Shown piece after piece: positions 3,256 through 33,734 of a DNA stretch of 34,575 nt (position 1 is the first letter of the stretch; the number at the start of each line of letters is the position of its first letter). Location of the stretch: NCBI GenBank assembly GCA_030630005.1, contig DAOVNY010000003.1, positions 1 to 34,575 of the forward strand, given 5' to 3'. The position numbers were made by a program, and so were the translations under genes. The notes under the pieces were generated by a model, which saw only the letters and a program-made list of their open reading frames with translations, had not been told where the DNA came from and did not search any database. The DNA comes from Bacteroidales bacterium (lineage in GTDB: Bacteria > Bacteroidota > Bacteroidia > Bacteroidales > JAIORY01).

Positions 3256-3482
3256 AAATGACTGAAATGACTGAAATTTAAAAATATCAATTCTTGGGTT
3301 CACTTCGAAAAGTTAACAAAAAGAAAATGCCACTAAGACACCAAGACTCAAAGAAACACAAAAAAAATCAATTATAAATATTTCTTTCTCCATCACTCCA
3401 TTACTCCATTTATTTCCCATATTTCCCTTATTTCCCTTACGACCAGAGGGAGTCCGTATGGATTCCCAATTTCAAATTTCCA
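3256..3482. repeat. Patchwork of several short tandem arrays (9-, 8-, 8-, 9-, 7-nt units) with a 26-bp embedded hairpin
   Basis: AAATGACTG x2 (3256), CACYAAGA-like x3 (~3331), CTCCATYA x2-3 (3388), ATTTCCCWT x3 (3412), insert 3438-3463. Confidence 0.7.
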
Positions 3483-5627: not shown

Positions 5628-5742
5628 AGTTTCGAGTTTTGGGTTTTGGGTTTCGGGTTTCGCCAGACATTTAACTTCCATTACCATTACTCCATTACTC
5701 CATTACTCCATTACTCCATTACTCCATTACTCCATTACTCCA
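5628..5742. repeat. RGTTTYG x5 array followed by CCATTACT x7 perfect array
   Basis: Heptamers 5628-5662; seven exact octamers 5684-5739. Confidence 0.95.
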
Positions 5743-5745
5743 AAT

Positions 5746-7329
5746 TTATACAATCCTTTTCTTCTCTTTATCCCAATACACTTTCCTGTTTTCGCGATAA
5801 GCAATTGTACCCATGTGTGATGTAATTGCGCCCTCAAAACCACGATCGATATTACAACTCGGCTGAGTTCCTTTTCTTATACAGTCAATCCATTCCTTAA
5901 TGTGAAGGTGAGTTGTATCAACCATTTTACCTCCGCGTTGAGTGTATAACAAACCTCTTCCGGCAAAATATTTTTCGGTAGGAGAAGATATTGCATCCAC
6001 TTTTTCTACTCCGGGAACATAAGTATAAAGCGGACTTGATGGGTCAAATATTCCTTTTTCAATCTTTTCTTTATAACGTGTAGAGTTACGATCGGCAGTT
6101 ATTGTAAGGGTATTGCCAAGTTCCATCGAAGCATCATGCCCCATAATCACTCTGCCTCTTTTACGACTGCTTGCCAGACTGGCACTATAAACTAAAGACA
6201 TATCCTTTTCGGGAAATTCAAAAACAGTTTGAAGTACATCAGGGACTGTCCGTCCATCCTTAAAGTGATAAATACCACCGGAAGAAATTGCGGAATCAGG
6301 AATTCCAATATCCATAATTTGATTTATCGCATCATACTCATGAGTAAGCAAATCACCTGATAATCCTGTGCTATAATCCCACCAGCAACGCCAGCGAAAG
6401 AACCTTTCGAGACTGAATTTATGATAAGGTGCATGTCCTATAAACTGATCCCAATCAATAGTCTGAGGATTAGCATCAGGGTGGATTTTATAAACCCATG
6501 CTCCGTTTGAAGTATTCCGGTTTGTAGTAACTTCAATTAAACTTATCTTGCCGAGAATATTTTTTTCAATTGCTTCACGGGCTTTAAAATAGCTCTCTGT
6601 TTGCCTCCCCTGATGACCAAGCTGAAAAACAATATTATTTCTTTTTACGGCTTCAACAACTTCATAAGTTTCCGTAGCTGTCCATGTCATTGGTTTTTCG
6701 CAATAAACATGTTTTCCTGCATTTGCAGCGTCAATTGTCATTCGTCCGTGCCAATGATCGGGAACAGAAATAATGACAGCATCAATATCATCAGCGGCAA
6801 GAAGTTCTTTGTAAGTCCGGTATCTTCTTGGTTCAGTTCCCATTTTCCCGACTGTTCCTTCCCTGTTAATATTTGAAGCTGCCTTTTGAGCATTTTCAGC
6901 ATAAACATCAAAAATATCACAAACACCATTTATAACAACATTAAGGTTTTCCTGTTGTAAGAAATTTTTATATCTTTTGTCGTTTTTATCCTTTAAAGCT
7001 TTTTCTTTCAGATCGTCAATATATTGGGGATGAGCGAAACCGGCACCACGAGCAAGATGTGGTCCACGAATTCCAAATCCTATTAATCCTAATCTTATTT
7101 GCTTTCCTCCGGCTGTTAATTCAGTTATTTCCGGTGCTGCGTGACTAAGATCAAGTTCTTCATTAATGGTAGTCCTAAGTATATTATCAAATTTATTTTT
7201 CCGGTAAACACCGTAAGCCATTGCACCCAGCACAGGAACAGTTGCTAATCCTTTTAAAATATCTCTTCTGGAAAATCTACCGGAATTGGTCTGATTTTGG
7301 TTTTTACTATCCTTTTGTCTCTCGTTCAT
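5746..7329 (-). CDS. Gfo/Idh/MocA oxidoreductase with Tat-like N-terminus
   Basis: SRRDILK; GFGIRG, VPDHWH, CEKPM, GLSGDLLTH motifs. Confidence 0.88.
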   Translation of the reverse strand: MNERQKDSKNQNQTNSGRFSRRDILKGLATVPVLGAMAYGVYRKNKFDNILRTTINEELDLSHAAPEITELTAGGKQIRLGLIGFGIRGPHLARGAGFAHPQYIDDLKEKALKDKNDKRYKNFLQQENLNVVINGVCDIFDVYAENAQKAASNINREGTVGKMGTEPRRYRTYKELLAADDIDAVIISVPDHWHGRMTIDAANAGKHVYCEKPMTWTATETYEVVEAVKRNNIVFQLGHQGRQTESYFKAREAIEKNILGKISLIEVTTNRNTSNGAWVYKIHPDANPQTIDWDQFIGHAPYHKFSLERFFRWRCWWDYSTGLSGDLLTHEYDAINQIMDIGIPDSAISSGGIYHFKDGRTVPDVLQTVFEFPEKDMSLVYSASLASSRKRGRVIMGHDASMELGNTLTITADRNSTRYKEKIEKGIFDPSSPLYTYVPGVEKVDAISSPTEKYFAGRGLLYTQRGGKMVDTTHLHIKEWIDCIRKGTQPSCNIDRGFEGAITSHMGTIAYRENRKVYWDKEKKRIV

Positions 7330-7420: not shown

Positions 7421-7933
7421 TTATTTTTTCACTGCCGACTGTTTACTTCCGACTTCCGACTTTTTTTTAAAAATCAATCTATCCATGCCAATAATCTTGC
7501 TTGTCGGAAAAACCAGTAACACAGCAAGAGTAACTAATTCAACAAATATTTTATTTACAATTAGATAATTCCCCTCTGTTGGGAGATTATAATCCAAACC
7601 GGGAAAAGGTGGATGAGACAGATAATACATTGTCAGTAAAACTATTCCTGCTATCTTAGCTATCCTGGCAAGGCAACCCAAAATAAGCCCCAGTCCAATT
7701 GCAATCAATCCATAGATATTCATAATATCAACAACATTAAGAACGCCTTGATCAGCAGCAATTGATTTATAAAAACCAGACATAAAACCCTGAGAATCCA
7801 TCAGGTATCCAAAACTTGACCATGCCGGATCAATCAATTTCACTAATCCTTCATACAAAAAAAGCCAGCCGATAATAACTCTTAATATTACAAGCATACT
7901 TAGCTGGCTTTTTGAATAATTCTTATTTTTCAT
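7421..7933 (-). CDS. DoxX-family membrane protein (thiosulfate:quinone oxidoreductase small-subunit-like)
   Basis: LRVIIGWLFLYEGLVK motif, four hydrophobic segments; C-terminal tail encoded by 7-nt repeats. Confidence 0.85.
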   Translation of the reverse strand: MKNKNYSKSQLSMLVILRVIIGWLFLYEGLVKLIDPAWSSFGYLMDSQGFMSGFYKSIAADQGVLNVVDIMNIYGLIAIGLGLILGCLARIAKIAGIVLLTMYYLSHPPFPGLDYNLPTEGNYLIVNKIFVELVTLAVLLVFPTSKIIGMDRLIFKKKSEVGSKQSAVKK

Positions 7934-7944
7934 ATTTATTTTTT

Positions 7945-7994
7945 AATCTGTGAATCTGTGGCTATTTTTTATATAATTTTTCGCAGTGGACTCA
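7945..7994. repeat. Two orphan element ends: AATCTGTG tandem and a 17-bp TIR-like sequence
   Basis: 7945-7962 matches reverse complement of 15271-15288 (17/18); 7978-7994 matches reverse complement of 27648-27664 (16/17). Confidence 0.7.
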
Positions 7995-13766: not shown

Positions 13767-15104
13767 TTATATAATACCTTCATCCATCATTGCATTAGCA
13801 ACTTTAAGGAATCCGGCAACATTTGCACCTTTAACATAATTTATATAACCATCATCTTCGGTACCGTATTTAACACAAGCTTCATGGATATTAATCATAA
13901 TATCATGTAATCTTTTATCAACTTCTTTTGCAGGCCAATTCAGTTTCATTGAATTTTGTGACATCTCAAGTCCCGAAGTTGCAACACCACCGGCATTAAC
14001 AGCTTTTCCGGGTCCAAATAAAATTTTATTTTCCTGAATAATTTCAACAGCTTCAGGAGTAGATGGCATATTTGCACCTTCGGCAACGCACATACATTTA
14101 TTATTTACTAAATTTTGAGCGTCTTCTTTATTTAGTTCATTTTGAGTAGCACAAGGTAAAGCAACATCACATTTTACTTCCCATGGATGTTTTCCTTTAT
14201 GGAATTCAGCTTCTGGGAATTCGATTGCATAAGGTGCAACGATATCCTGGTTTGAAGCTCTTAACTCAAGCATATACTCAATCTTTTCGCCGGAAATTCC
14301 TTCAGGATCATAAACATAACCATCGGGACCTGAAAGTGTAATAACTTTTCCGCCAAATTCAGTAACTTTCTTAGCAGCACCCCATGCAACATTACCAAAA
14401 CCGGAGATAGCAACTTTTTTACCTTCAAAAGTTTCGCCTTTAGTTGCAAGCATTTCTTTTGCAAAATAAACAGTTCCAAATCCTGTAGCTTCAGGACGTA
14501 TGAGACTTCCACCCCAGTTTATTCCTTTACCGGTAAGTACACCTGTATGCTCTCTTGCAAGTTTTTTATATGCACCATATAAGTATCCAATTTCTTTTCC
14601 ACCAACTCCAATATCACCGGCAGGTACATCTGTATCAGGTCCGATAAGATGCCATAATTCTAACATAAATGCCTGACAGAAACGCATTATCTCTGTATCT
14701 GATTTTCCTTTAGGATCAAAGTCCGATCCTCCTTTTCCACCACCCATTGGTAATGTAGTAAGGCTATTTTTAAATATCTGCTCAAAACCCAAAAATTTAA
14801 GAATACTTAAATTTACACTTGGGTGAAAACGTAATCCACCTTTATAAGGTCCAATAGCATTATTAAACTGTATCCTGTATCCAAGATTAACATTAACTTT
14901 TCCGTTATCGTCAACCCATGATACCTTAAAAGTAAGAATTCTGTCAGGCTCAATAATTCTTTCAATTATTCCTGCTGATTCAAATTGAGGATTGTCTGCA
15001 ACGACATCTTCAAGTGTTTCCAGTACTTCTCTAACAGCCTGTAGATATTCTTGTTCTCCGGGATGTTTTTTTTCGAGCTTACTTATTATTTTTTCAAGAT
15101 CCAT
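13767..15104 (-). CDS. gdhA: Glutamate dehydrogenase, NAD(P)-specific
   Basis: GPYKGGLRFHPSVN, GGGKGG, DVPAGDIGVG, RPEATGFG, EGANMP motifs. Confidence 0.97.
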   Translation of the reverse strand: MDLEKIISKLEKKHPGEQEYLQAVREVLETLEDVVADNPQFESAGIIERIIEPDRILTFKVSWVDDNGKVNVNLGYRIQFNNAIGPYKGGLRFHPSVNLSILKFLGFEQIFKNSLTTLPMGGGKGGSDFDPKGKSDTEIMRFCQAFMLELWHLIGPDTDVPAGDIGVGGKEIGYLYGAYKKLAREHTGVLTGKGINWGGSLIRPEATGFGTVYFAKEMLATKGETFEGKKVAISGFGNVAWGAAKKVTEFGGKVITLSGPDGYVYDPEGISGEKIEYMLELRASNQDIVAPYAIEFPEAEFHKGKHPWEVKCDVALPCATQNELNKEDAQNLVNNKCMCVAEGANMPSTPEAVEIIQENKILFGPGKAVNAGGVATSGLEMSQNSMKLNWPAKEVDKRLHDIMINIHEACVKYGTEDDGYINYVKGANVAGFLKVANAMMDEGII

Positions 15105-15197
15105 AACTCAAATATTTAAATATTGTTTAAAATGTTTATTAAAATTTTTATTTATTTCTACTGTTATAAAAATAACAATGTTAATTAATTCACAGCG

Positions 15198-15205
15198 CAA
15201 AATTA
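15198..15205 (-). promoter_or_regulatory. -7 element (TAATTTTG) upstream of gdhA
   Basis: TAnnTTTG followed by C, ~95 bp upstream of start. Confidence 0.5.
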
Positions 15206-15375
15206 CATTTTATAAAATGATATTTCCAAATAATTTTGGAATATTTTTATAAAGTTTTTTAACAAAATTTGCCGCAGATTCACAGATTACAAAATTAATC
15301 TTTTTGTGCTATGTTTATGGAATTCCTGTTCTGAATATTTCGTAAGTTGTAGGGGGCTATTTTCTATCATTTCCA

Positions 15376-17712
15376 TTAGGCTACTTTTATTTCGTATAAA
15401 TGTTTCTGAAAATCAATAAATAATGAGCTTATATTTGCAACATCGCCCAATATTTCTTTTGCGTCTTCCAACGATTGGTATTTATTTGTTAGTAAGATTG
15501 GTAATTTTTCCTGAGCAAGTTCTCCAACTCCTGTTTCAATATATTTGCTTAATACAAATTCAATAAATTCCTTTTGTTGATCATTTAGTAATGCAAAAAT
15601 TGTTGCTTCTGCTCTTGTTACTCTTTCTTCTCTTGTTATCGGTTTTATGTCGCTGTTAAACACATATTCCAATACATCAAATAAGTCGCTTTTTTCTGCA
15701 TTGATTAGTTTTTTCAAAGTGTTTAAATCTTCTTTTCCGAAACCTGCTTCGTCCAACTTCTCAAGCAAAATTTTACGTGTCATTGGGTTGCTCCATAAAG
15801 TCCGTAATTCTTCTTCGCTTTTAAAGAAGTTAGGAAGTTCACCAAACAAATTATTTAAAAACTCTTCTGCCGAAATTGGATTACCGTCTGCATTCCAAAA
15901 CGAAGTAGCAATCATGTGTTGTATTTCTCTTTCTTTTCCGTCTTTCAGTTTTATCTTAATTCTTTTCTTTTTTTCTTTTGGTTCATAAATACCATCTTTC
16001 TCCAATGCTGTTGACGGCTCTTTAAATTCTTTTGGTTTATATTCTTTGGGTTCTTCTTCAACCGGCTCACCATCCCATTCCGGATCAGAAAATCGTTGAT
16101 AAGCATCTACAAAATCGTAAATAGTAAAAAACTCTTTCCCATCAAAAAGACGTGTTCCTCTCCCCACTATTTGTTTAAACTCAATTATCTGATTTACCGG
16201 TCGCATCAAAACAATATTACGGATATTCCGGGCATCAACTCCTGTTGATAGTTTTTGTGAAGTTGTTAAAACTGTCGGAATTGTTTTTTCATTGTCTTGA
16301 AATTTTCTTAAAAATTGCTCTCCAATCTCTCCATCATTGGCGGTAACACGAACACAATAATCAGGGTCTTTGCTTTTCTTGTATTGATTTACCAATTCCC
16401 GAACAGCAGCTGCGTGGTCTTGTGTAGCACAGAAAATTATTGTTTTGTCATTCTCATTGGCTTCGTCCATATAAATCCGAACTCGTTTTGCCTCTCGTTC
16501 TTTTATTTCAATGATTCGGTTAAAATCAGGTTCTTCATACAGTTTTCCTTCTTCAATTTCGCCTTCAATAATATTATCATCACTTGTATAAATATAATCG
16601 TCAAGCGTGGTTTTAATTCGTTTAACTTTGAAAGGCGTTAAAAAACCATCATTAATACCTTCTTTAAGCGAATAGATATAAACCGGCTCGCCAAAATATT
16701 TATAAGTGTCAACATTGTCTCTTCGTTTTGGCGTAGCTGTTAAACCCAATTGAACAGCAGGCGAAAAGTACTCTAAAATCCCTCTCCAATTTCCTTCGTC
16801 ATTTGCTCCGCCACGATGACACTCATCAATTATGATAAAATCAAAATAGTCTTCGGGATACTGCCCAAAACTTGGTACTGAATTCCCTTCAGCATCAGAA
16901 CCACTCATGAAAGATTGAAAAATGGTAAAGAAAATGCTGCCGTTGGTTGGCACTCTACCTCTCATTCTTATTTCGCTGGGTTTAATTCTTACCATTGCAT
17001 CATCAGGGAATTTTGAAAAAGCATTAAATGCCTGGTTTGCGAGAATATTTCGGTCTGCCAAAAACAAGATGCGAGGTCTTCGGTTCCCGTCTCTTTGTAA
17101 ATTCCAACGAGTATAAAAAAGCTTCCATGCAATTTGAAAAGCAATAGCTGTTTTCCCTGTTCCTGTGGCAAGAGTTAATAAAATACGGTCTTTGTTTTGT
17201 GCAACGGCTTCCAAAGTATTTTTTACTGCAATTTCTTGATAATATCGCAATTGCCAAGTACCGCTTTTATCTTCATAAGGAACGGAAGCAAATTTATCTC
17301 GCCATTCGTTTTGGTCAGAATAAGTTTTATCCCAAAGTTCTTCAGGAGTAAGAAAATCTGAAACCAAACCCTCTGCACCTGTTTTCATACAAATTTGGTA
17401 AATCTCTTTTCCGTTGGTTGAGTAAGTAGTTTCTAAATTTAGTTTTTCGGCATATTGTTTTGCTTGTGCCACACCTTCGCCTACTTCCAACTCATCGCTT
17501 TTAGCTTCAACAACAGCGAGTTTAACACCTTTGTAAACCAAAATATAATCAGCAATAAGTGGTTTTTTCCTGCCACCGCCAACTTGTATTTTTCCGTCTG
17601 TAATCTTACAAACATTGCGTTCACGAAGGATTTTAGAACCTTCAACAACTCCCCAACCACAAGATTTTAATTTGGGGTCTATTAATTCTGCTCTTGTTTC
17701 CGCCTCATTCAT
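15376..17712 (-). CDS. hsdR: Type I restriction endonuclease subunit R (EcoAI/EcoEI-like)
   Basis: ADYIL..VVEAK nuclease motif, LRYYQ, ATGTGKT, DECHRG, TATP, QIVGRGTR, helical C-terminal domain. Confidence 0.95.
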   Translation of the reverse strand: MNEAETRAELIDPKLKSCGWGVVEGSKILRERNVCKITDGKIQVGGGRKKPLIADYILVYKGVKLAVVEAKSDELEVGEGVAQAKQYAEKLNLETTYSTNGKEIYQICMKTGAEGLVSDFLTPEELWDKTYSDQNEWRDKFASVPYEDKSGTWQLRYYQEIAVKNTLEAVAQNKDRILLTLATGTGKTAIAFQIAWKLFYTRWNLQRDGNRRPRILFLADRNILANQAFNAFSKFPDDAMVRIKPSEIRMRGRVPTNGSIFFTIFQSFMSGSDAEGNSVPSFGQYPEDYFDFIIIDECHRGGANDEGNWRGILEYFSPAVQLGLTATPKRRDNVDTYKYFGEPVYIYSLKEGINDGFLTPFKVKRIKTTLDDYIYTSDDNIIEGEIEEGKLYEEPDFNRIIEIKEREAKRVRIYMDEANENDKTIIFCATQDHAAAVRELVNQYKKSKDPDYCVRVTANDGEIGEQFLRKFQDNEKTIPTVLTTSQKLSTGVDARNIRNIVLMRPVNQIIEFKQIVGRGTRLFDGKEFFTIYDFVDAYQRFSDPEWDGEPVEEEPKEYKPKEFKEPSTALEKDGIYEPKEKKKRIKIKLKDGKEREIQHMIATSFWNADGNPISAEEFLNNLFGELPNFFKSEEELRTLWSNPMTRKILLEKLDEAGFGKEDLNTLKKLINAEKSDLFDVLEYVFNSDIKPITREERVTRAEATIFALLNDQQKEFIEFVLSKYIETGVGELAQEKLPILLTNKYQSLEDAKEILGDVANISSLFIDFQKHLYEIKVA

Positions 17713-17757
17713 AATTGTTAATTATTAATGGTTAGTTGTTAATGGTTAGTTGTTAAT
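17713..17757. repeat. 7-nt tandem array (AATTGTT/AATGGTT/AGTTGTT x6) downstream of four-helix-bundle gene
   Basis: Fills the whole spacer up to the hsdR start codon. Confidence 0.85.
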
Positions 17758-18115
17758 ACTTGATTAAGTTTAATTTTGTTGTTTTAATAATACTTGTAAT
17801 TAATTTTATCATTTCAATAGCATCAATATTAATACTTTCAAATTGTTCTATACTTAAATAATTAGTTTCTCTTAACAGTTCTAACCAATAAATACTTTCG
17901 TTTATTTCTTTTTGTGCAATTGCCATTTTATGAATAAAATCAGCCTTGCTCTCAGCGTGTTCTGCCTATCTAACCAAAGCACTTACACTTGTACCACTTC
18001 TTAACAACTGTTTTGAAAGAACATATTCTTTCTTTTCTGATTGAATAAATTGATATAGTTTCACAATGCGAATTGCAAATTTAAAACTCTTCTCTTTTAC
18101 AATATTTTTCTTCAT
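17753..18115 (-). pseudogene. Four-helix-bundle protein (TIGR02436/23S rRNA IVP-like) with in-frame TAG at codon 50; absent from ORF track
   Basis: Manual translation MKKNIVKEKSFKFAIRIVKLY...LSKQLLRSGTSVSALVR*AEHAESKADFIHKMAIAQKEINESIYWLELL...; TAG at 17968-17966 where the family has Glu. Confidence 0.9.
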
Positions 18116-18126
18116 CTTAATATCTT

Positions 18127-18200
18127 CATTAACAATTTATAATTAACCATTAATAATTATTCTACTCATTGTCAATTTTCAATTTTCCATTATCAATTAA
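18127..18200. repeat. 7-nt tandem arrays (CATTAAC/AATTAAC and CATTGTC/AATTTTC) upstream of four-helix-bundle gene, inverted relative to 17713-17757
   Basis: 18144-18159 is the exact reverse complement of 17719-17734; second half overlaps the Bro-N 3' end. Confidence 0.85.
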
Positions 18201-19016
18201 GTTGTTTTTATCAGAAACAACGCTTCTTCCTAACTCTTTTTCAGTATTTCTTCTTGCATTTCCTGCAACTTTGCCACCTCTTTTAGCTACACTTTTATTT
18301 TTATAAAAGGTATCGGGTTTCTCTTTTTTAGAAATCTCTGTGGTAACCCGCTCTCCTAACATTGTGAAAATAAGCTCCAAATCATCCATATTGTCACGTA
18401 AGTTAATTTTCGACTTTTCAGGGATGTTTTTAAACTCTTTATATTCACTTGGTGTCATACCAAAAGTTGCTTTGGAAATTTCGGCAGTTAAAATAGCATA
18501 ATCTCTATGTTCTTTTATACCTCGCTCTTTCCATTCATCCGTTAAGTTTTGTCGAATGGCAATTCCTCGCAGTCGTTTATCAATCCAATCTTTTGGATAG
18601 CCCTTTTGCTCATAAATTTCTTTCATCCGTTCTTGAGCAAGTTCGGGGTTTTCTATCTCATCTAAGCGTTCTTTACCCACTTGTGCCAACCACTGTTTAA
18701 ATGGTTCAGCTTTTTTTGATGGAATGGATTGAATTAAACGTAGAATATCTTTTGTATCAGCAATATCAGTCATTCTCATTTTACCATCGGCAGATAGCAT
18801 TTTCAACCGGTTACAATTTGTAACCGTTTCGTTCCCCTCTTTTAAAAGTCTATGTTTTAAAACTTTCCAATAATTTCTTGCCCCCTGATAATCTTTCTGT
18901 TCTGTTAATATTTCTACAATATCAACAATTGAAAAATACCATTTTTCTTCTGTTTCGTCCCAGTGAGTTCTGATTTTTTGCTCTTGAAAAAGTTGTAATT
19001 TATTTGATTTATCCAT
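18162..19016 (-). CDS. Bro-N domain (antirepressor-like) DNA-binding protein
   Basis: IRTHWD..WYFSIVDIV, RNYWKVLK, DGKMRMTD, RLIQSIPSKKAEPFKQWLA, NLRDNM motifs. Confidence 0.88.
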   Translation of the reverse strand: MDKSNKLQLFQEQKIRTHWDETEEKWYFSIVDIVEILTEQKDYQGARNYWKVLKHRLLKEGNETVTNCNRLKMLSADGKMRMTDIADTKDILRLIQSIPSKKAEPFKQWLAQVGKERLDEIENPELAQERMKEIYEQKGYPKDWIDKRLRGIAIRQNLTDEWKERGIKEHRDYAILTAEISKATFGMTPSEYKEFKNIPEKSKINLRDNMDDLELIFTMLGERVTTEISKKEKPDTFYKNKSVAKRGGKVAGNARRNTEKELGRSVVSDKNNLIDNGKLKIDNE

Positions 19017-19260: not shown

Positions 19261-20013
19261 TTAAAATATTGCATATTGTTGTTCAATAATTTCAGGATAT
19301 TGTTGCCAAATCTTACCATCTAAAATTTTTCCATTTTGCTTTTTATTTCGTTTTACTTTATCAGCCCCCAAAGTACCCCATTGTTTAAAGAAAAAAGCAA
19401 TATCTTTTTCTTCACATTGCTGTTTTATGTTTAAGACCCAACTTTTTTCCATTGACCTTGCCCTGTTGCCACTTTCTCCACCAACAATTACCCAATCAAT
19501 GTTTTCAAAATTTATTCTTCCCAAATCTTCAAGTAATGGTTCTACCGAAAGAAATAAAACACTTGCTTTTAATTGTCTTAATTTGTCTATCCTTGGCAAA
19601 CCTTCTTTTTTGTTATCAACTGTTACGCCAAGCCAAATATTTTTAGGTATTTCTCTTTGAGACAGATATTGAAACATTCTATCCGCCCTTTTTGTCAGAA
19701 TTTGATAAGTGTGATGCGGTGTTTCTTTAATTACATCAAAAATTTTATTCAAATATTCTTCGGGCATATCTTTATGAAAGATATCACTCATTGAGTTAAC
19801 AAAATAAACAGTTGGTTTTTTTCTTTTAAAAGGGTCATTTAGCCTACTTGGCACAGTATTAAATGTAAAACCATTTTCATAGCCTTCAACTCCCATCGCC
19901 TGTAATCGGATAGCCATTGTTTCAGCATAGCAATTTTTACAGCCTAAACTAATTTTTGTACAACCTGCCGAAGGGTTCCACGTTTGCTCTGTCCATTCTA
20001 TTTTATGTGCCAT
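19261..20013 (-). CDS. DUF5131 / phage Gp37-Gp68 family protein (radical-SAM-like three-Cys motif)
   Basis: Start moved to ATG 20013; IEWTEQTWNP..GCTKISLGCKNCYA, VNSMSDIFH, QILTKR, SVEPLL, GGESG, FFFKQWG. Confidence 0.92.
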   Translation of the reverse strand: MAHKIEWTEQTWNPSAGCTKISLGCKNCYAETMAIRLQAMGVEGYENGFTFNTVPSRLNDPFKRKKPTVYFVNSMSDIFHKDMPEEYLNKIFDVIKETPHHTYQILTKRADRMFQYLSQREIPKNIWLGVTVDNKKEGLPRIDKLRQLKASVLFLSVEPLLEDLGRINFENIDWVIVGGESGNRARSMEKSWVLNIKQQCEEKDIAFFFKQWGTLGADKVKRNKKQNGKILDGKIWQQYPEIIEQQYAIF

Positions 20014-20022
20014 AGTTATCAA

Positions 20023-20646
20023 CTAATAAAATTTATCATTATCCCAATTATCAGGATTATTTTTAATGTATTCTGTAATTGTATTATATGAATTTTCATT
20101 TCGTATTATATGTTCCCAATAATTTCGTTGCCATATTTTTTTATCAAATGGTTTCCAATTTTTTGTTTTTACCCCGCGAATATATTCAACGGTGGTAATG
20201 GATTGAAATGCTCCAACCATTTGACCTAACGTTTTTTTATTTTGAATTTCCGTTGGGGTTTCCGTTGGGGTTTCCGTTGGGGCAATCCCTTGTGGTTGCC
20301 CTTTTTGATTTGGGTCGACCACGAGGGTCGCCCCTACGGTATTTTCGTTTTGGGTGGATGCGTTGTTATTCGGGGAAACGATTTCCAATATGGCGTGAAA
20401 ATGGTTGGGCATTGTAATATATTTGTGTAATTGAACGTTTTTAAATCGTTCGGTTAATTTTAACCATTCGTTATTTATCATTATTCCGGCATCATTCAAA
20501 ATCATTTTGCAGTTTTTAATATTACCAAATAAATGTTCCCTGTTTTGACAAACAATGGTAACAAAATACAATCCTGCCTGCGAATAATCATATCCTTTTA
20601 ATCGGATTGACCTACGATGATGAATATTTGGATTATATTTTGTCAT
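20023..20646 (-). CDS. REP-associated tyrosine transposase (RAYT/TnpA-REP, IS200-like HUH Y1)
   Basis: RRSIRLKGYDYS..GLYFVTI, MPNHFH (HUH), WQRNYWEHIIRNE, YIKNNP. Confidence 0.9.
   Translation of the reverse strand: MTKYNPNIHHRRSIRLKGYDYSQAGLYFVTIVCQNREHLFGNIKNCKMILNDAGIMINNEWLKLTERFKNVQLHKYITMPNHFHAILEIVSPNNNASTQNENTVGATLVVDPNQKGQPQGIAPTETPTETPTEIQNKKTLGQMVGAFQSITTVEYIRGVKTKNWKPFDKKIWQRNYWEHIIRNENSYNTITEYIKNNPDNWDNDKFY
20247..20337. repeat. Inverted REP pair plus 12-bp x3 tandem inside the transposase gene
   Basis: Minus strand GTAGGGGCGACCCTCGTGGTCGACCC (20337-20312); plus strand GTTGGGGCAATCCCTTGTGGTTGCCC (20276-20301); TTTCCGTTGGGG x3 (20247-20282). Confidence 0.85.
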
Positions 20647-20649
20647 AAA

Positions 20650-21858
20650 TTAAAATTCCCCATTAAACGCTTTTTGCAAAACCGACTTTTTTAATTCCCC
20701 CAAATCTACAATTTTTTTCTGATAAACAGCTTCCAATCTTTTGGTTTCGGCTGAAAGAGCATCAAGTTTTTTGACAATGGTTTGTTGTTCGGATAAGGAT
20801 TTTGGAAATGGAATAATAATACTTTTTACTTCGCTATTTGTTACTGCTGGGTAACTTGCTCCTTTTTGAAGTTTCTCCATTTGTTGATTAAACCCAAAAG
20901 TTAAAAGGAAGTAATAAATGAAATTGTTATTCAAAAAATCTTTTGCCCTTAAAACATAATAACCCGTACTACAAACCTGATTATTATATTCTTCTGTAAT
21001 TATTGTAACTCGACTATGTGTTGGGCGAACAGTTGCAAAAATTACATCATTTGTTTTTATAAGTTTTCTTGCTCTACTTGGTGCATCTTTACCTAACAAT
21101 ATAGATGTTTCTTCAATCTGTTTTGTTTCTTTATTAACGCTTGATACATCAAGATAAATAAATTCTTCGTTAGGATTTAATTTTGGGTTTACTGTTTCTG
21201 TTTTTTGAAGGACTTTCCCCAAAGTCTTCTCTTCCCAATCATCTCCTTTATTCTCAAACACCCCTTGCAAATAACTCTCAAAAAGTTCCTTAGAATTTTT
21301 AAGGTTTTGTTCGGCATTGGTTTTTGCCTTGGCTATGGCGGCAAAGGCTTTATCAAGAATGGCTACTATGCGTTTTTGTTCGGAGAGTGGTGGGAGTGGG
21401 ATTTGGATTGCTTCAATTTGAGCCTTATTAATTGAATTAAAAACTGCACCTGTATTACAAACAATCTCATTTTCGTGTTTTAATAAATAATTAAATAGAA
21501 ATTCTTTTTCAATTAATTTACTTGCTCTAATTGCTGCAAGTCCACGACCAATACAAATTCTTTGAGTTGAAAAATTTATTGGACCAACAGGAGCACGAAC
21601 TGACATTAAAATATCGTTTGCTTTTGCTTCTTTAGTTATTTTGGTTGTCCACTTAGTTGGTTCTCCAATGTATTTTTTAGTAAATTCCTTCTTGCCCTGA
21701 TAAAAAGGCAATCCATTTTCTTTTGTATTATAGTATTTTCCCTCTGGTGATTGACCTGCAATTACTTTACAAACCTCCCCCAACTTTTTCATTTCCCAAC
21801 CCTTCTTTTTCAATTGAAAATTATTTTCATTGTCCACTATCAATTGTCCTTTATCCAT
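20650..21858 (-). CDS. hsdS: Type I restriction-modification specificity subunit
   Basis: Start moved to ATG 21858; GWEMKKLGEV, two TRDs, PLPPLSEQKRIV and PKSLSEQQTIV conserved regions. Confidence 0.93.
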   Translation of the reverse strand: MDKGQLIVDNENNFQLKKKGWEMKKLGEVCKVIAGQSPEGKYYNTKENGLPFYQGKKEFTKKYIGEPTKWTTKITKEAKANDILMSVRAPVGPINFSTQRICIGRGLAAIRASKLIEKEFLFNYLLKHENEIVCNTGAVFNSINKAQIEAIQIPLPPLSEQKRIVAILDKAFAAIAKAKTNAEQNLKNSKELFESYLQGVFENKGDDWEEKTLGKVLQKTETVNPKLNPNEEFIYLDVSSVNKETKQIEETSILLGKDAPSRARKLIKTNDVIFATVRPTHSRVTIITEEYNNQVCSTGYYVLRAKDFLNNNFIYYFLLTFGFNQQMEKLQKGASYPAVTNSEVKSIIIPFPKSLSEQQTIVKKLDALSAETKRLEAVYQKKIVDLGELKKSVLQKAFNGEF

Positions 21859-22714
21859 TGTCAATTGATTTAATTTTATCCAAAACCTTAACAGAAGAGA
21901 TATCCATTTTAGAAAAGGCAAACCATTTTTTACCAAGGTCTTTAAGTGAAGCCCCAAAGTGGTATATTTCTTTTTCATCAATAATAAGAAAGCGGTCGTG
22001 AGCATCTTTAAACTTTTTTACTTCTATGGTTTGGTATTGCTCGTTATGTTTCTTTATATCCAAGCTAAATTGTTTTGAGATAGTTTTAGTAAGAATAGTA
22101 AAACTTACGCCATTTTTTCGCTTTGCAAAATGAGTTAAAACTGTATCATCAACATAATTATCTATCAGAATTATAGATTTCTTTGCTGTCCGAAGCAAAT
22201 CGGAAACAAAAGAGTAAGCATCAAATATTTGTCCTTTAAAGAAAACATCTTGCTTAGGCGGTAAACTCGCATTTATTTGTAAATCAATACCATCAACTCT
22301 TTCCATTATGGTATGAACATTATCTTCAATACGGTTCATTCTTTGATTTAAGGAGTAGCCTTTTAATAAATAATCTTTTAGAATTTTATTTGCCCATATA
22401 CGAAATTGCGTACCTTGTTTCGATTTTACTCTATAACCAACAGAAATAATTACATCAAGATTGTAGTGTGCAATTTGTCGTTCAACTTGTCTTTCTCCTT
22501 CATTTTGAACTGTCGCAAAATTTGCGACAGTTGAACTTTTATTAAGTTCTCCCTCGTCAAACACATTATTTATATGCTTTCCAATAGTTTTTATATCTCT
22601 ATCAAACAAAACCGAAATTTGCTGTCTGTTTAGCCAGACAGTTTCGTCTTCTACTTTCACTTCTAATCGTGTTAGAAGCTCCTCTGACTGATATAGTATG
22701 ACTTCATTCTTCAT
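21851..22714 (-). CDS. RhuM-family DNA-binding protein with C-terminal PLD-like extension
   Basis: ETVWLNRQQ, YNLDVIISVGYRVKS..GTQFRIWA; C-terminal IILIDNY and HDRFLIID...GASLKDLG. Confidence 0.85.
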   Translation of the reverse strand: MKNEVILYQSEELLTRLEVKVEDETVWLNRQQISVLFDRDIKTIGKHINNVFDEGELNKSSTVANFATVQNEGERQVERQIAHYNLDVIISVGYRVKSKQGTQFRIWANKILKDYLLKGYSLNQRMNRIEDNVHTIMERVDGIDLQINASLPPKQDVFFKGQIFDAYSFVSDLLRTAKKSIILIDNYVDDTVLTHFAKRKNGVSFTILTKTISKQFSLDIKKHNEQYQTIEVKKFKDAHDRFLIIDEKEIYHFGASLKDLGKKWFAFSKMDISSVKVLDKIKSIDNG

Positions 22715-24201
22715 ATCAAGCTTTTTATATTTTCTAAAATAGTTGCACTTTCTTTATCCAGTTCAGTCATATTTTTCAAAATTTCGGCAGGTTGGCGTAG
22801 TGGTGCTTCTTCGAGCGTATTCGGGTTTTTAGCGGAAAGGTCCATTTCGGCTACGCTCAATGAACTTATATCTACAGTCCAAGAATTTTCGCTTTCCTTT
22901 TGCGTTTTCTGGAACTCAACAAACTCTGCTAAATCATTTTCGTTAAGCGGATTTGTTTTGCCGAGGTTTCTGTCTAAATTCAGTTGGTAAAACCACGTTT
23001 TTTGTGTGGGCTTTCCTTTTTCAAAAAACAAAACTACGGTTTTAACACCTGCACCTGTGAAAGTTCCGCCCGGCAAATCTAAAACGGTGTGCAAATTACA
23101 ACTGTTCAATAATTCTTTACGCAAGGCAATGGAAGCATTGTCGGTATTGCTTAAAAAAGTATTTTTAATTACAACACCTGCTTTTCCACCAGCCTTCAAT
23201 ATTTTAATAAAATGCTGCAAAAACAGACTTGCAGTTTCTCCTGTTTTTATGGGAAAGTTTTGTTGCACTTCGGCACGTTCTTTTCCACCAAAAGGAGGAT
23301 TAGCCAAAATTATATCGTAACGGTTTTTTTCTTGTATATCGGCAAGGTTTTCGGCAAGTGTGTTGGTATGCACAATATTAGGGGCTTCAACACCGTGCAA
23401 AATCATATTCATAATACCAATAATATAGGCAAGCGATTTTTTCTCTTTGCCGTAAAAGGTCTTCTTTTGTAAAGTATCTGTATCGGTAGTAGAAAGAGAC
23501 ACCCTGCTGTGCGTCTTTACATTTTTAAGATATTCAAAAGCTTCCACCAAGAAACCCGCAGAACCAACCGCACCATCATAAATTTTGTTGCCAATTTGGG
23601 GAGCAACCACTTTTACTATGGTTTTAATCAGAGGTCGTGGTGTGTAGTATTCGCCACCGTTTCGTCCTGCATTTCCCATATTTTTGATTTTCCCTTCGTA
23701 CAAGTGGCTCATTTCGTGCTTTTCTTTATGAGTTCTAAAACGAAGCTCGTCAATTAAATTTACAACTTCTCGGAGATTATAACCGCTTTGAATTCTGTTT
23801 TTCAATTCGCTAAAAATCTCGCCAATTTTATATTCTATGGTATTAGCATTTTCAGCATTGGTTTTAAATTTTTTCAGATATTGGAAAAGTTCACCGTTTA
23901 CAAAGTCCACAAGGTCATCGCCTGTTAATGCGTTGTGGTCAATTCTTGTGCTGAGTCTTGTCGAAGTATTTCCGTTTTCTAATTTTGGTGCAGCCCAAGT
24001 AGTCCATTGATATTTTTTGTCAATAATTTTTTCGTAGGTTTTTCCTGAAAGTTCGGCTGCAGTCTGTTTGTCTTTTTCTAAGTCGTCCAAGTATTTCAAA
24101 AACAATACCCAAGAGGTTTGTTCTACATAATCTAATTCACTTCCACATCCTGCGTCTTTGTGGAGTATGTCGTCTATATTTTTAAAAGTCTGTTCAAACA
24201 T
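22711..24201 (-). CDS. hsdM: Type I N6-adenine DNA methyltransferase subunit
   Basis: GEYYTPR, DGAVGSAGFL (motif I), NPPF (motif IV); cotranscribed with hsdS/hsdR. Confidence 0.95.
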   Translation of the reverse strand: MFEQTFKNIDDILHKDAGCGSELDYVEQTSWVLFLKYLDDLEKDKQTAAELSGKTYEKIIDKKYQWTTWAAPKLENGNTSTRLSTRIDHNALTGDDLVDFVNGELFQYLKKFKTNAENANTIEYKIGEIFSELKNRIQSGYNLREVVNLIDELRFRTHKEKHEMSHLYEGKIKNMGNAGRNGGEYYTPRPLIKTIVKVVAPQIGNKIYDGAVGSAGFLVEAFEYLKNVKTHSRVSLSTTDTDTLQKKTFYGKEKKSLAYIIGIMNMILHGVEAPNIVHTNTLAENLADIQEKNRYDIILANPPFGGKERAEVQQNFPIKTGETASLFLQHFIKILKAGGKAGVVIKNTFLSNTDNASIALRKELLNSCNLHTVLDLPGGTFTGAGVKTVVLFFEKGKPTQKTWFYQLNLDRNLGKTNPLNENDLAEFVEFQKTQKESENSWTVDISSLSVAEMDLSAKNPNTLEEAPLRQPAEILKNMTELDKESATILENIKSLI

Positions 24202-27482: not shown

Positions 27483-27647
27483 ATTTATTTCTGTGAGAAA
27501 TTCAAAAAAACAAAACCAAAAATAATAAAATTTCTGTTATGTAAACGAAAATATTTAATAAAAATTACTTGATAAATTATTAATTGGGGAATCCATGTAA
27601 ACGTATTGTGGTCGTATGAGTATTGGAGTGGTGGAGTGGTGGAGTGG

Positions 27648-27847
27648 TGAGTCCACTCCGAAAAGTGCTTTGGGCTAAAGCCCCTTATGTTTGTTTAGAT
27701 GTTTATATCCACGTCCTAAAGAACGTGGCAATTCAAAAGTTATTGCAATTCAATGAATTACCCTGCCATTTATGGCAGGGGTAAAAAAAATTATACAGAA
27801 GAAAATGGACTTTAGTCCATAATAAATTGCTTTTCGGAGTGACTTCA
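27648..27847. mobile_element. 200-bp MITE/REPIN-like element with imperfect 18-bp TIRs and four mirror-arranged hairpins
   Basis: TGAGTCCACTCCGAAAAG ... CTTTTCGGAGTGACTTCA (12-bp perfect core); hairpins at 27672, 27709 (TAAA loops) and 27761, 27805 (TTTA loops). Confidence 0.7.
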
Positions 27848-33575: not shown

Positions 33576-33710
33576 AGTTTTAAGTTTTGGGTTTCCCATC
33601 CATACGGACTTCCTTTGGTCGTACGGGCTAACTTCGTGTCGCAGGTTTCGGGTTTTGGGTTTCGGGTTTTGGGTTCAACTCAAAATTTCAAACTCGAAAC
33701 TCAAAACCAA
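33576..33710. repeat. Back-to-back inverted 7-nt arrays (RGTTTYG then AACTCRA) interrupted by a small insert
   Basis: Heptamers 33576-33596 and 33644-33676, complementary array 33677-33710; insert contains 26-bp repeat at 33598-33623. Confidence 0.85.
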
Positions 33711-33734
33711 ACCATCTCCACCCATAATTTTATG

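Follow-up and report, generated by a model that had tools for sequence, protein, structure and literature searches.

What is a broken gene for a small four-helix-bundle protein doing between two complementary arrays of heptamers, directly in front of hsdR? The question is raised by a stretch of 34,575 nucleotides from a Bacteroidales bacterium (contig DAOVNY010000003.1), the whole of which is referred to here as the window, and in which a type I restriction operon carries, between a Bro-N gene and hsdR, a member of the TIGR02436/PF05635 (S23p) family. We consider that this feature is probably a decayed copy of a mobile cassette, made up of a four-helix-bundle gene with heptamer arms and being of the type found in the intervening sequences (IVSs) of 23S rRNA, within the type I restriction operon. 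In the following, we describe the gene and its arms, the evidence on whether the arms belong to the cassette or to the site, and the explanations that compete with this one.

A broken gene between complementary heptamer arms

An earlier note on this DNA, made from the sequence alone, had described a four-helix-bundle gene interrupted by a single TAG, six heptamers running downstream as far as hsdR and a 16-bp exact inverted match, and had assigned the protein to the family that occurs in 23S rRNA IVSs. All of these descriptions proved correct (Table 1). The TAG is codon 50 of the gene (window 17966-17968). When it was read as X, the protein matched TIGR02436 with 97.2 bits (cut-off 24) over the complete profile (1-109 of 109), and PF05635 with 88.2 bits (cut-off 33.8). 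The open reading frame (ORF) of about 120 codons is thus not intact in the window copy, whereas the relatives keep a conserved Glu at codon 50. In the closest relative, a cassette of a related genome (G002:C69), this codon is GAG (Glu) and lies inside the conserved ...VREAEHAESKADFIHKM... stretch, suggesting that the gene was inactivated by a single G-to-T change. A further, independently made assembly from the probable source run, a run that is not independent of the sample, showed 0 differences over 16900-18602 and the same TAG, and the stop is therefore not a slip of the first assembly. Among the 150 matches to the family that were listed across 41 related genomes, 10 had an internal stop. 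Since TAA, TAG and TGA all occur among these broken family members, the TAG at codon 50 is evidently ordinary decay and not recoding.

The 3' arm consists, in order, of the units TAACAAC, TAACCAT, TAACAAC, TAACCAT, TAATAAT and TAACAAT, the first of which begins in the stop codon of the gene. According to Tandem Repeats Finder (TRF), positions 17712-17757 comprise 6.6 copies of a 7-nt period, or alternatively a period of 14 at 90%. We found an inverted match of 30 nt at 87% between 17719-17748 and 18130-18159, with a 16-nt exact core, TAATTATTAATGGTTA. None of 1000 dinucleotide shuffles gave an exact inverted match of 16 nt (the longest was 12), and with the arm geometry kept fixed and moved across the window, 1 of 911 positions did. 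Chance or low complexity as the source of the arms was rejected by these shuffles and the sliding geometry, together with the cross-locus controls given below. In the minimum-energy RNA fold, the four-helix gene is closed by the 16-bp arm.

On the upstream side, the earlier note had counted about nine complementary heptamers. The count is fair, as two blocks of four are present. Good complementarity to the 3' arm is, however, restricted to the proximal block, and the distal block has only a 5-nt core in common with the complement of that arm. The proximal block has its homologue in the 5' arm of G002:C69. In a related contig (run X3; one contig, depth 4.6), positions 17942-18198 are joined to 19144 without the Bro-N gene, suggesting that the distal block goes with the cassette and that the cassette extends over approximately 17713-18198.

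The armed layout among relatives and the insertion site

The flanks of 103 family genes, those usable in 32 genomes of the order, were surveyed; the family is present in 33 of the 41 related genomes. For each gene, the upstream flank and the reverse-complemented downstream flank were aligned locally by Watson-Crick matches, with 609 cross-locus pairs as the null. Complementary flanks above the cross-locus 95th percentile were found for 76 of the 103 genes, and above the 99th percentile for 61. RNAduplex energies, which allow G.U pairs, separated own from cross-locus flank pairs poorly. Arrays were called by TRF; a stricter periodicity measure undercounted imperfect arrays. They were present in 90 upstream and 80 downstream flanks of the 103 genes, the background being 19 of 600 segments of 150 nt drawn at random from 12 genomes of the order. 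Their periods were mostly 7 (46 upstream, 42 downstream) and 8 (23 upstream, 21 downstream), with a median of 4.9 copies. In the 58 strong arm pairs, the gap from the arm to the ATG had a median of 43 nt (interquartile range 18-84). Downstream arms began a median of 21 nt after the stop. The earlier note had taken the feature for an IVS-like or mobile cassette, and had regarded a general lack of such flanks in the family as fatal to the idea. The flanks of the 76 relatives, the Coxiella-like layout discussed in the last section and the comparisons of sites below, in which gene and arms insert as one unit, all speak for the idea.

The neighbours of the surveyed genes were co-directional in 77 of 90 cases upstream and in 75 of 93 downstream. 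According to a scan of 90 of the 183 neighbour frames, the cassettes lie at junctions of ordinary operon partners, such as ETF-beta/ETF-alpha, Rnf subunits, ABC ATPase/permease, kinase/regulator, HlyD/AcrB, citrate lyase, TonB receptor/HmuY and RF-2/fumarase, as well as in several type I restriction operons. At one locus (L033, G001:C119 3900-7200), a tandem of three four-helix genes is flanked by hsdS on one side and a GIY-YIG-HsdR gene on the other; direct GAATTAC arrays separate the four-helix genes and one inverted array closes the set.

Comparison of individual sites bears on whether the arms belong to the cassette or to its place of insertion. The cassettes of the window and of G002:C69 show 71% nucleotide identity, and their homology, which takes in the arms, starts just past the upstream stop and breaks off shortly ahead of the downstream ATG; the junctions differ (Bro-N/hsdR in the window and hsdR/hsdM for G002:C69). 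The arms of the two copies differ by a two-sided change, AATGGTT/AACCATT in the window as compared with AATGGTG/CACCATT in G002:C69. The ETF-beta/ETF-alpha junction is empty in the genome of the window (G000), where it consists of TAA, a 33-nt AAATC-type spacer and ATG, with the arms of neither congener cassette. At the same junction, the congeners G001 and G002 have two different cassettes with different arms, each inserted directly after the TAA. No target-site duplication was visible by eye at these filled and empty junctions. In contigs of related strains, hsdR appears to follow a plain A-rich leader that lacks the cassette; the joints, at 17712/19084 and 17716/19140, are weak, being anchored by 20 and 24 nt at 85% likeness. 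Between genomes, flank similarity was seen in 0.2-0.7% of pairs with protein identity <45%, in 20% of those at 55-70%, and in 6 of 7 at >=70%; in a Mantel test of flank similarity against protein identity, none of 300 permutations came up to the value observed. Judged from these sequence comparisons, the four-helix gene together with its arms is one insertable unit, which is gained and lost within operons, and the gene evidently often decays, leaving gene-less arms behind.

The genome of the window is rich in arrays. We found 328 strong arrays, as compared with 15 in a Markov-3 simulation (period 7, 121 vs 0; period 8, 105 vs 1), and many of them are gene-less inverted pairs 7-100 nt apart. 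Among the 121 period-7 arrays, 44 match the arm units of another cassette of this genome, on contig C44 (shuffle mean 16.8, maximum 26), and only 9 match the units of the window cassette (shuffle mean 20.7). Within the window, the spacers at 1534-1620, 3388-3439, 5629-5742 and 33644-33711 hold 7-, 8- or 9-mer arrays of other units, e.g. GGAGTAAT in seven copies and a GAAACCC type. The claim of the earlier note that the feature is the best filled example of a window-wide architecture was thus overstated, as the other window arrays differ in unit and so few of the genome's arrays resemble those of the cassette. Across the order, six gene-free genomes had 0-2.4 strong arrays per 100 kb, and six genomes with 3-11 four-helix copies had 0 to 46, arrays being dense in only two of the latter (about 100 kb sampled each). 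The idea that presence of the gene implies genome-wide arrays was rejected on this ground. Armed cassettes were found in genomes with no period-7/8 array in the 100 kb sampled (77 kb for G027), namely 4 of 5 copies in G027, 4 of 4 in G034, 2 of 3 in G037 and 10 of 11 in G031.

Repeat word, proposed mechanism and rival explanations

The protein of G002 was searched against 185,579 species genomes, which returned 454 relatives. The best 80 of these, 62-100% identical, belong to one close subfamily only and gave 77 usable loci; by their record titles they come from Bacteroidota, Cyanobacteria, Desulfobacterota, Spirochaetes, Nitrospira, Marinimicrobia, Omnitrophota, Pasteurellaceae and others. 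The arrays of the 77 loci had period 7 in 49 of 56 cases upstream and 46 of 50 downstream. The core AAT[TG]G was found in 66 of 93 period-7 arm units of these loci, in contrast to 1 of 72 in subfamilies of <50% identity, and was oriented inward (median 7 inward vs 1 outward), with positions 6 and 7 of the unit varying. Four-fold degenerate sites of the same genes were 32.9% identical, as compared with 28.8% expected from composition. The core is therefore kept while silent sites are saturated, suggesting conservation by constraint and not by recency. A close relative matches PDB 2RLD (E 4.9e-43), which has 5 chains, and a passage of PMC4990558 cites the Xanthomonas family protein as a homopentamer. 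Because the 5-nt core is subfamily-specific and kept despite saturated silent sites, the arms may be arrays of recognition sites for the cassette's own pentameric protein, with about five units per arm, a proposal for which we see the balance as even. It could be extended to S23p/Avd-like proteins at large. These would bind tandem heptamers, one unit per pentamer subunit, and each subfamily would spread its own word, first as cassette arms and then as gene-less arrays, as a RAYT-REPIN-like source of the bacterial heptamer excess; we regard this extension as doubtful.

The sequence comparisons show the unit to be ordered as 5' arm, short leader, gene of about 120 codons and 3' arm, and to be found inserted between co-directional operon genes, often right after a stop codon and right before a start codon. 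In the proposed mechanism, the arms would pair in the operon transcript as a stem of about 30 bp and be cut by RNase III, as in rRNA IVSs, a step that we propose tentatively. In the window copy, the protein is lost through the change of the Glu codon to TAG, and only the structure can still act. With only 2 nt between the 3' arm and the ATG, the hsdR leader would be drawn into any pairing or cutting; the paired arms would either sequester it or turn it into an RNase III product.

Several results weigh against a mobile cassette whose arms belong to it, pair in RNA and are bound by its own protein. The z-score of the whole-region fold is modest (-2.14). Mismatches in the 58 strong arm pairs were of the G.U type in 90 cases and of the A.C type in 121, most being of the transversion type (331). 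Selection for sense-RNA pairing would predict a G.U excess; as none was seen in these pairs, there is no sign of such selection. In the survey, 23 of the 103 genes had directly repeated flanks, and 20 showed neither inverted nor direct relatedness. The four-helix gene at the RF-2/fumarase junction, found in three genomes of two families (G000, own C24, L003; G001, L041; G009, L152), is armed in G009 and without arms in G000 and its G001 orthologue; it may be an old, tamed copy. The cassette on contig C44 of the window's genome is intact, and the orthologous site of G001 is a deletion remnant of about 19 codons with eroded arms. In G002, the site orthologous to C44 6800-7300 (G002:C15, approximately 14700-15330, L183/L204) has the same outer heptamer arms around another cargo, a GxxExxY gene (TIGR04256, 1.3e-36) that has an inner set of inverted 8-mers of its own, CACAGATT/AATCTGTG. 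The arms can therefore outlive the four-helix gene and be reused. As to the repeat word, a second subfamily (that of the L004 protein, searched in 401 genomes of the phylum) gave best matches that were only 45-61% identical; in this sample the 15 upstream units were diverse, and 6 of them begin with AGT, like the query's AGTGACC. A rule that each subfamily has its own core would thus be drawn from one well-sampled subfamily, and binding to the arms is read from covariation, so that some other factor travelling with the cassette could explain the core.

The same observations can be arranged differently. If the heptamer arrays were pre-existing host hairpins between genes, formed from simple-sequence repeats, the four-helix gene would have landed in a loop and the arms would be its target. 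The abundance of arrays and gene-less inverted pairs in the genome would fit this, as would the reuse of outer arms around the GxxExxY gene in G002 and the insertion of both ETF-junction cassettes beside an existing AAATC-type spacer array. We nevertheless consider it rather improbable, because related cassettes in different contexts share homologous arms, the empty ETF site has the arms of neither cassette, arms are kept in genomes whose sampled background has no period-7/8 arrays, and the unit core tracks the protein subfamily across phyla. A host-kept regulatory spacer is a related idea, in which arrays before hsdR, and before other genes elsewhere, set translation and the four-helix protein is a trans-acting regulator. 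It would account for the position of the 3' arm next to the hsdR ATG and for the sharing of C44 arm units by 44 of the 121 period-7 arrays. Yet the gene is dead here and decay is common, hsdR appears to lack the cassette in related contigs (through the weak joints described above), the contexts are very diverse, and the different cassettes of sister species at one junction look like insertion; such a role is therefore very unlikely.

Two further alternatives concern the way of spreading. The cassette could be a non-autonomous hairpin element of single-stranded DNA which, like REPINs, depends for its movement on IS200/RAYT-type Y1 (HUH) tyrosine transposases supplied in trans by the host, in which case pairing would matter in DNA and not in RNA. 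Cassette counts followed the counts of Y1_Tnp matches across the 41 genomes (Spearman 0.68, or 0.66 when the window's genus was left out and 0.65 as a partial correlation on genome size; presence/absence 30/3/3/5, Fisher p 0.003), and did not follow those of the controls RVT_1 (-0.09) and rve (0.29), which argues against general mobile-element load as the source of the correlation. The absence of a G.U bias in the arms, and the presence of a RAYT-like gene in this operon, some 2 kb upstream (NF047646, 3.3e-17, below the cut-off), also agree with this route. However, this is a correlation among related genomes, which are not independent, and both features may mark repeat-tolerant genomes. Among 21 Y1 genes inspected by eye, most had short G+C-rich hairpins like those of repetitive extragenic palindromic (REP) sequences and none had heptamer arrays; three cassette-bearing genomes have no Y1 match, and the arm core follows the four-helix subfamily and not any transposase. 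We therefore regard transposition by Y1 enzymes as unlikely. Spread through RNA, in which the Avd-like protein would recruit a reverse transcriptase to the excised, arm-closed RNA for copying back into DNA, could draw on the homology of PF05635 proteins to Avd noted in part of PMC10053308, and on the excision of IVS RNAs as discrete molecules described in PMC4990558. RVT_1 matches, however, were present in 17 of 33 cassette-bearing and 6 of 8 cassette-free genomes, the congeners with 22 and 13 cassettes have none, and the only one of the window's genome is on contig C17, outside the window. Owing to this lack of co-occurrence, retro-mobility by reverse transcriptases was rejected and the RNA route is disfavoured as scarcely credible. 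Taken together, these results lead us to prefer the hypothesis that the window feature is a decayed mobile cassette that carries its own arms.

Genomic setting and comparison with known systems

The window is contig C78 of a 2.26-Mb genome in 231 contigs with 32% G+C. The cassette is surrounded by genes that are all, like it, minus-strand genes; they make up a type I restriction-modification operon with other genes interspersed (Table 1). No PADLOC match was obtained for the four-helix protein, and a defence role for it was rejected on this basis. No Rfam family, those of rRNA included, matched anywhere in the window.

Table 1. Positions in the window of the cassette, its parts and the neighbouring genes.
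Feature	Position	Strand	Remarks
hsdM	22711-24201	-	
RhuM-family gene	21851-22714	-	PADLOC candidate defence family PDC-S05
hsdS	20650-22005	-	
RAYT-like gene	20023-20646	-	NF047646 3.3e-17, below cut-off; about 2 kb upstream of cassette, same operon
DUF5131	19261-20022	-	PADLOC candidate defence family PDC-M30B
Bro-N gene	18162-19016	-	PF02498 Bro-N 7.3e-10; PADLOC PDC-S13 3.3e-122
Cassette (5' arm, leader, four-helix-bundle gene, 3' arm)	17713-18198	-	
5' arm, distal block	18168..18198	-	four AAT[TG][GA]-type heptamers; TRF period 7, 4.4 copies; also last 12 codons of Bro-N
Bro-N TAG stop	18162..18164	-	between the two 5'-arm blocks; ORF 18162..19016
5' arm, proximal block	18128..18159	-	4.6 heptamers, AAT[TG][GA]-type (TRF); contains 16-nt exact complement of 3' arm
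A/T-rich short leader, arm to ATG	18116..18127	-	sequence
Four-helix-bundle gene, TIGR02436/PF05635	17753..18115	-	120 codons + TAA, TAG at codon 50
3' arm, six heptamers	17713..17757	-	TAACAAC/TAACCAT type; overlaps TAA stop, ends 2 nt before hsdR ATG at 17712
hsdR, type I restriction subunit	15376-17712	-	Pfam HSDR_N, ResIII, Helicase_C, EcoEI_R_C; start codon and leader abut 3' arm

Some further repeats were noticed in passing. The RAYT-like gene contains a perfect 12-mer in three copies (window 20247-20282), encoding PTETPTETPTE, a tandem array taken up in frame. On contig C44, at approximately 7255-7300, an array encodes NLKSKILNLKS in the N-terminal region of the signal peptide of the downstream protein. 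An inverted repeat on the window's minus strand (27560-27790), CACTCCGAAAAG...CTTTTCGGAGTG, surrounds about 190 nt with two small G+C-rich hairpins and has no Rfam match; the arrays TGGAGTGG and CCAACAATTA adjoin it.

The function of the S23p/PF05635 family, and the origin and movement of rRNA IVSs, have been open questions since the 1990s, and according to PMC4692102 it is unexplained why heptamer repeats are over-represented in bacterial genomes. The data presented here tie these three puzzles together. For annotation, they mean that many odd intergenic arrays, and short extensions of neighbouring frames, could be read as cassette arms or their remnants. The window copy is dead, and its only likely present effect would be on the hsdR leader.

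Among known systems, the cassette resembles REP/REPIN-RAYT systems in that short hairpin-forming intergenic repeats multiply in the genome and are tied to one protein family, with gene-less copies far outnumbering gene-bearing ones. REPs, however, are single short G+C-rich palindromes, whereas the arms of the cassette are tandem 7- or 8-mers and do not correspond to a REP unit; the cassette protein, unlike RAYT, is a four-helix bundle in which no catalytic motif is known. The Avd protein of diversity-generating retroelements is a nucleic-acid-binding pentamer. Avd genes adjoin a reverse transcriptase and template/variable repeats, none of which is found at the window cassette, and the latter therefore does not qualify as such a retroelement; the two proteins share a homologous four-helix-bundle fold, as described in part of PMC10053308. 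Unlike a miniature inverted-repeat transposable element, the window cassette carries a gene, and no duplication was visible by eye at the ETF junctions.

Heptamer repeats are known as TAACTGA in Beggiatoaceae, Cyanobacteria and Bacteroidetes (PMC4679880), and as GGGAATC in Xanthomonas, with 70-75 convergent inverted pairs (PMC4692102). They are similar to the arms in being tandem heptamers of two to dozens of copies, intergenic and often right before start codons, and their patchy distribution has been taken to suggest horizontal transfer (PMC4679880, PMC4692102). The accounts of the repeats in these two papers treat them as regulatory or G-quadruplex elements, not as arms of gene cassettes, and do not mention the four-helix/S23 family. 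Cassettes of the GxxExxY family (TIGR04256) are likewise small operon genes between inverted arrays of short repeats, mostly 8-mers. They differ in the unrelated PD-(D/E)XK-like fold of the protein, and in arms that are often complete hairpins on each side. At 14 GxxExxY loci (L190-L204; G000, G001, G002, G009, G020), inverted 8-mer-type arrays were seen by eye to flank the genes, often as a full hairpin on each side. The window itself has two lone arm words of this type, neither with a GxxExxY gene close by, that look like solo arms. One, CACAGATTCACAGATT at 7945-7962, lies just upstream of an ORF at 7421-7933, and the other, AATCTGTGAATCTGCGGC at approximately 15270-15295, lies between gdhA and the hsdR stop.

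A literature search by TIGR02436 and the family names gave, to judge by the list of papers, nothing on the flanks of family genes (supplements being outside the search), and a search for 23S rRNA intervening sequences with heptamers and tandem repeats gave only a study of Coxiella as relevant. As described in passages of that study (PMC4990558), the IVS of Coxiella burnetii has a 28-bp terminal stem, which is cut by RNase III in vitro, and two or three tandem GACAGAT heptamers before the S23p ATG, their number varying among strains; it is regarded there as a selfish element that moves in an unknown way, and its ORF tends to decay. This IVS is located within the 23S rRNA gene (helix 45), whereas the window cassette is found between Bro-N and hsdR, outside any 23S rRNA gene (helix 9, 25 or 45). 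Both arms of the latter are multi-unit arrays, and its host RNA would be an mRNA, so that a cut would separate cistrons. In other respects, the window cassette is like the ORF-bearing IVS as those passages present it, with an S23p/PF05635 gene in a loop whose stem is made by complementary ends, heptamers before the ATG and a decaying ORF. The complementary ends, matching over 30 nt at 87%, enclose the ORF, and the predicted fold closes the gene. The window feature is real, and is an ordinary, dead member of a class of cassettes that appears not to have been described outside rRNA.

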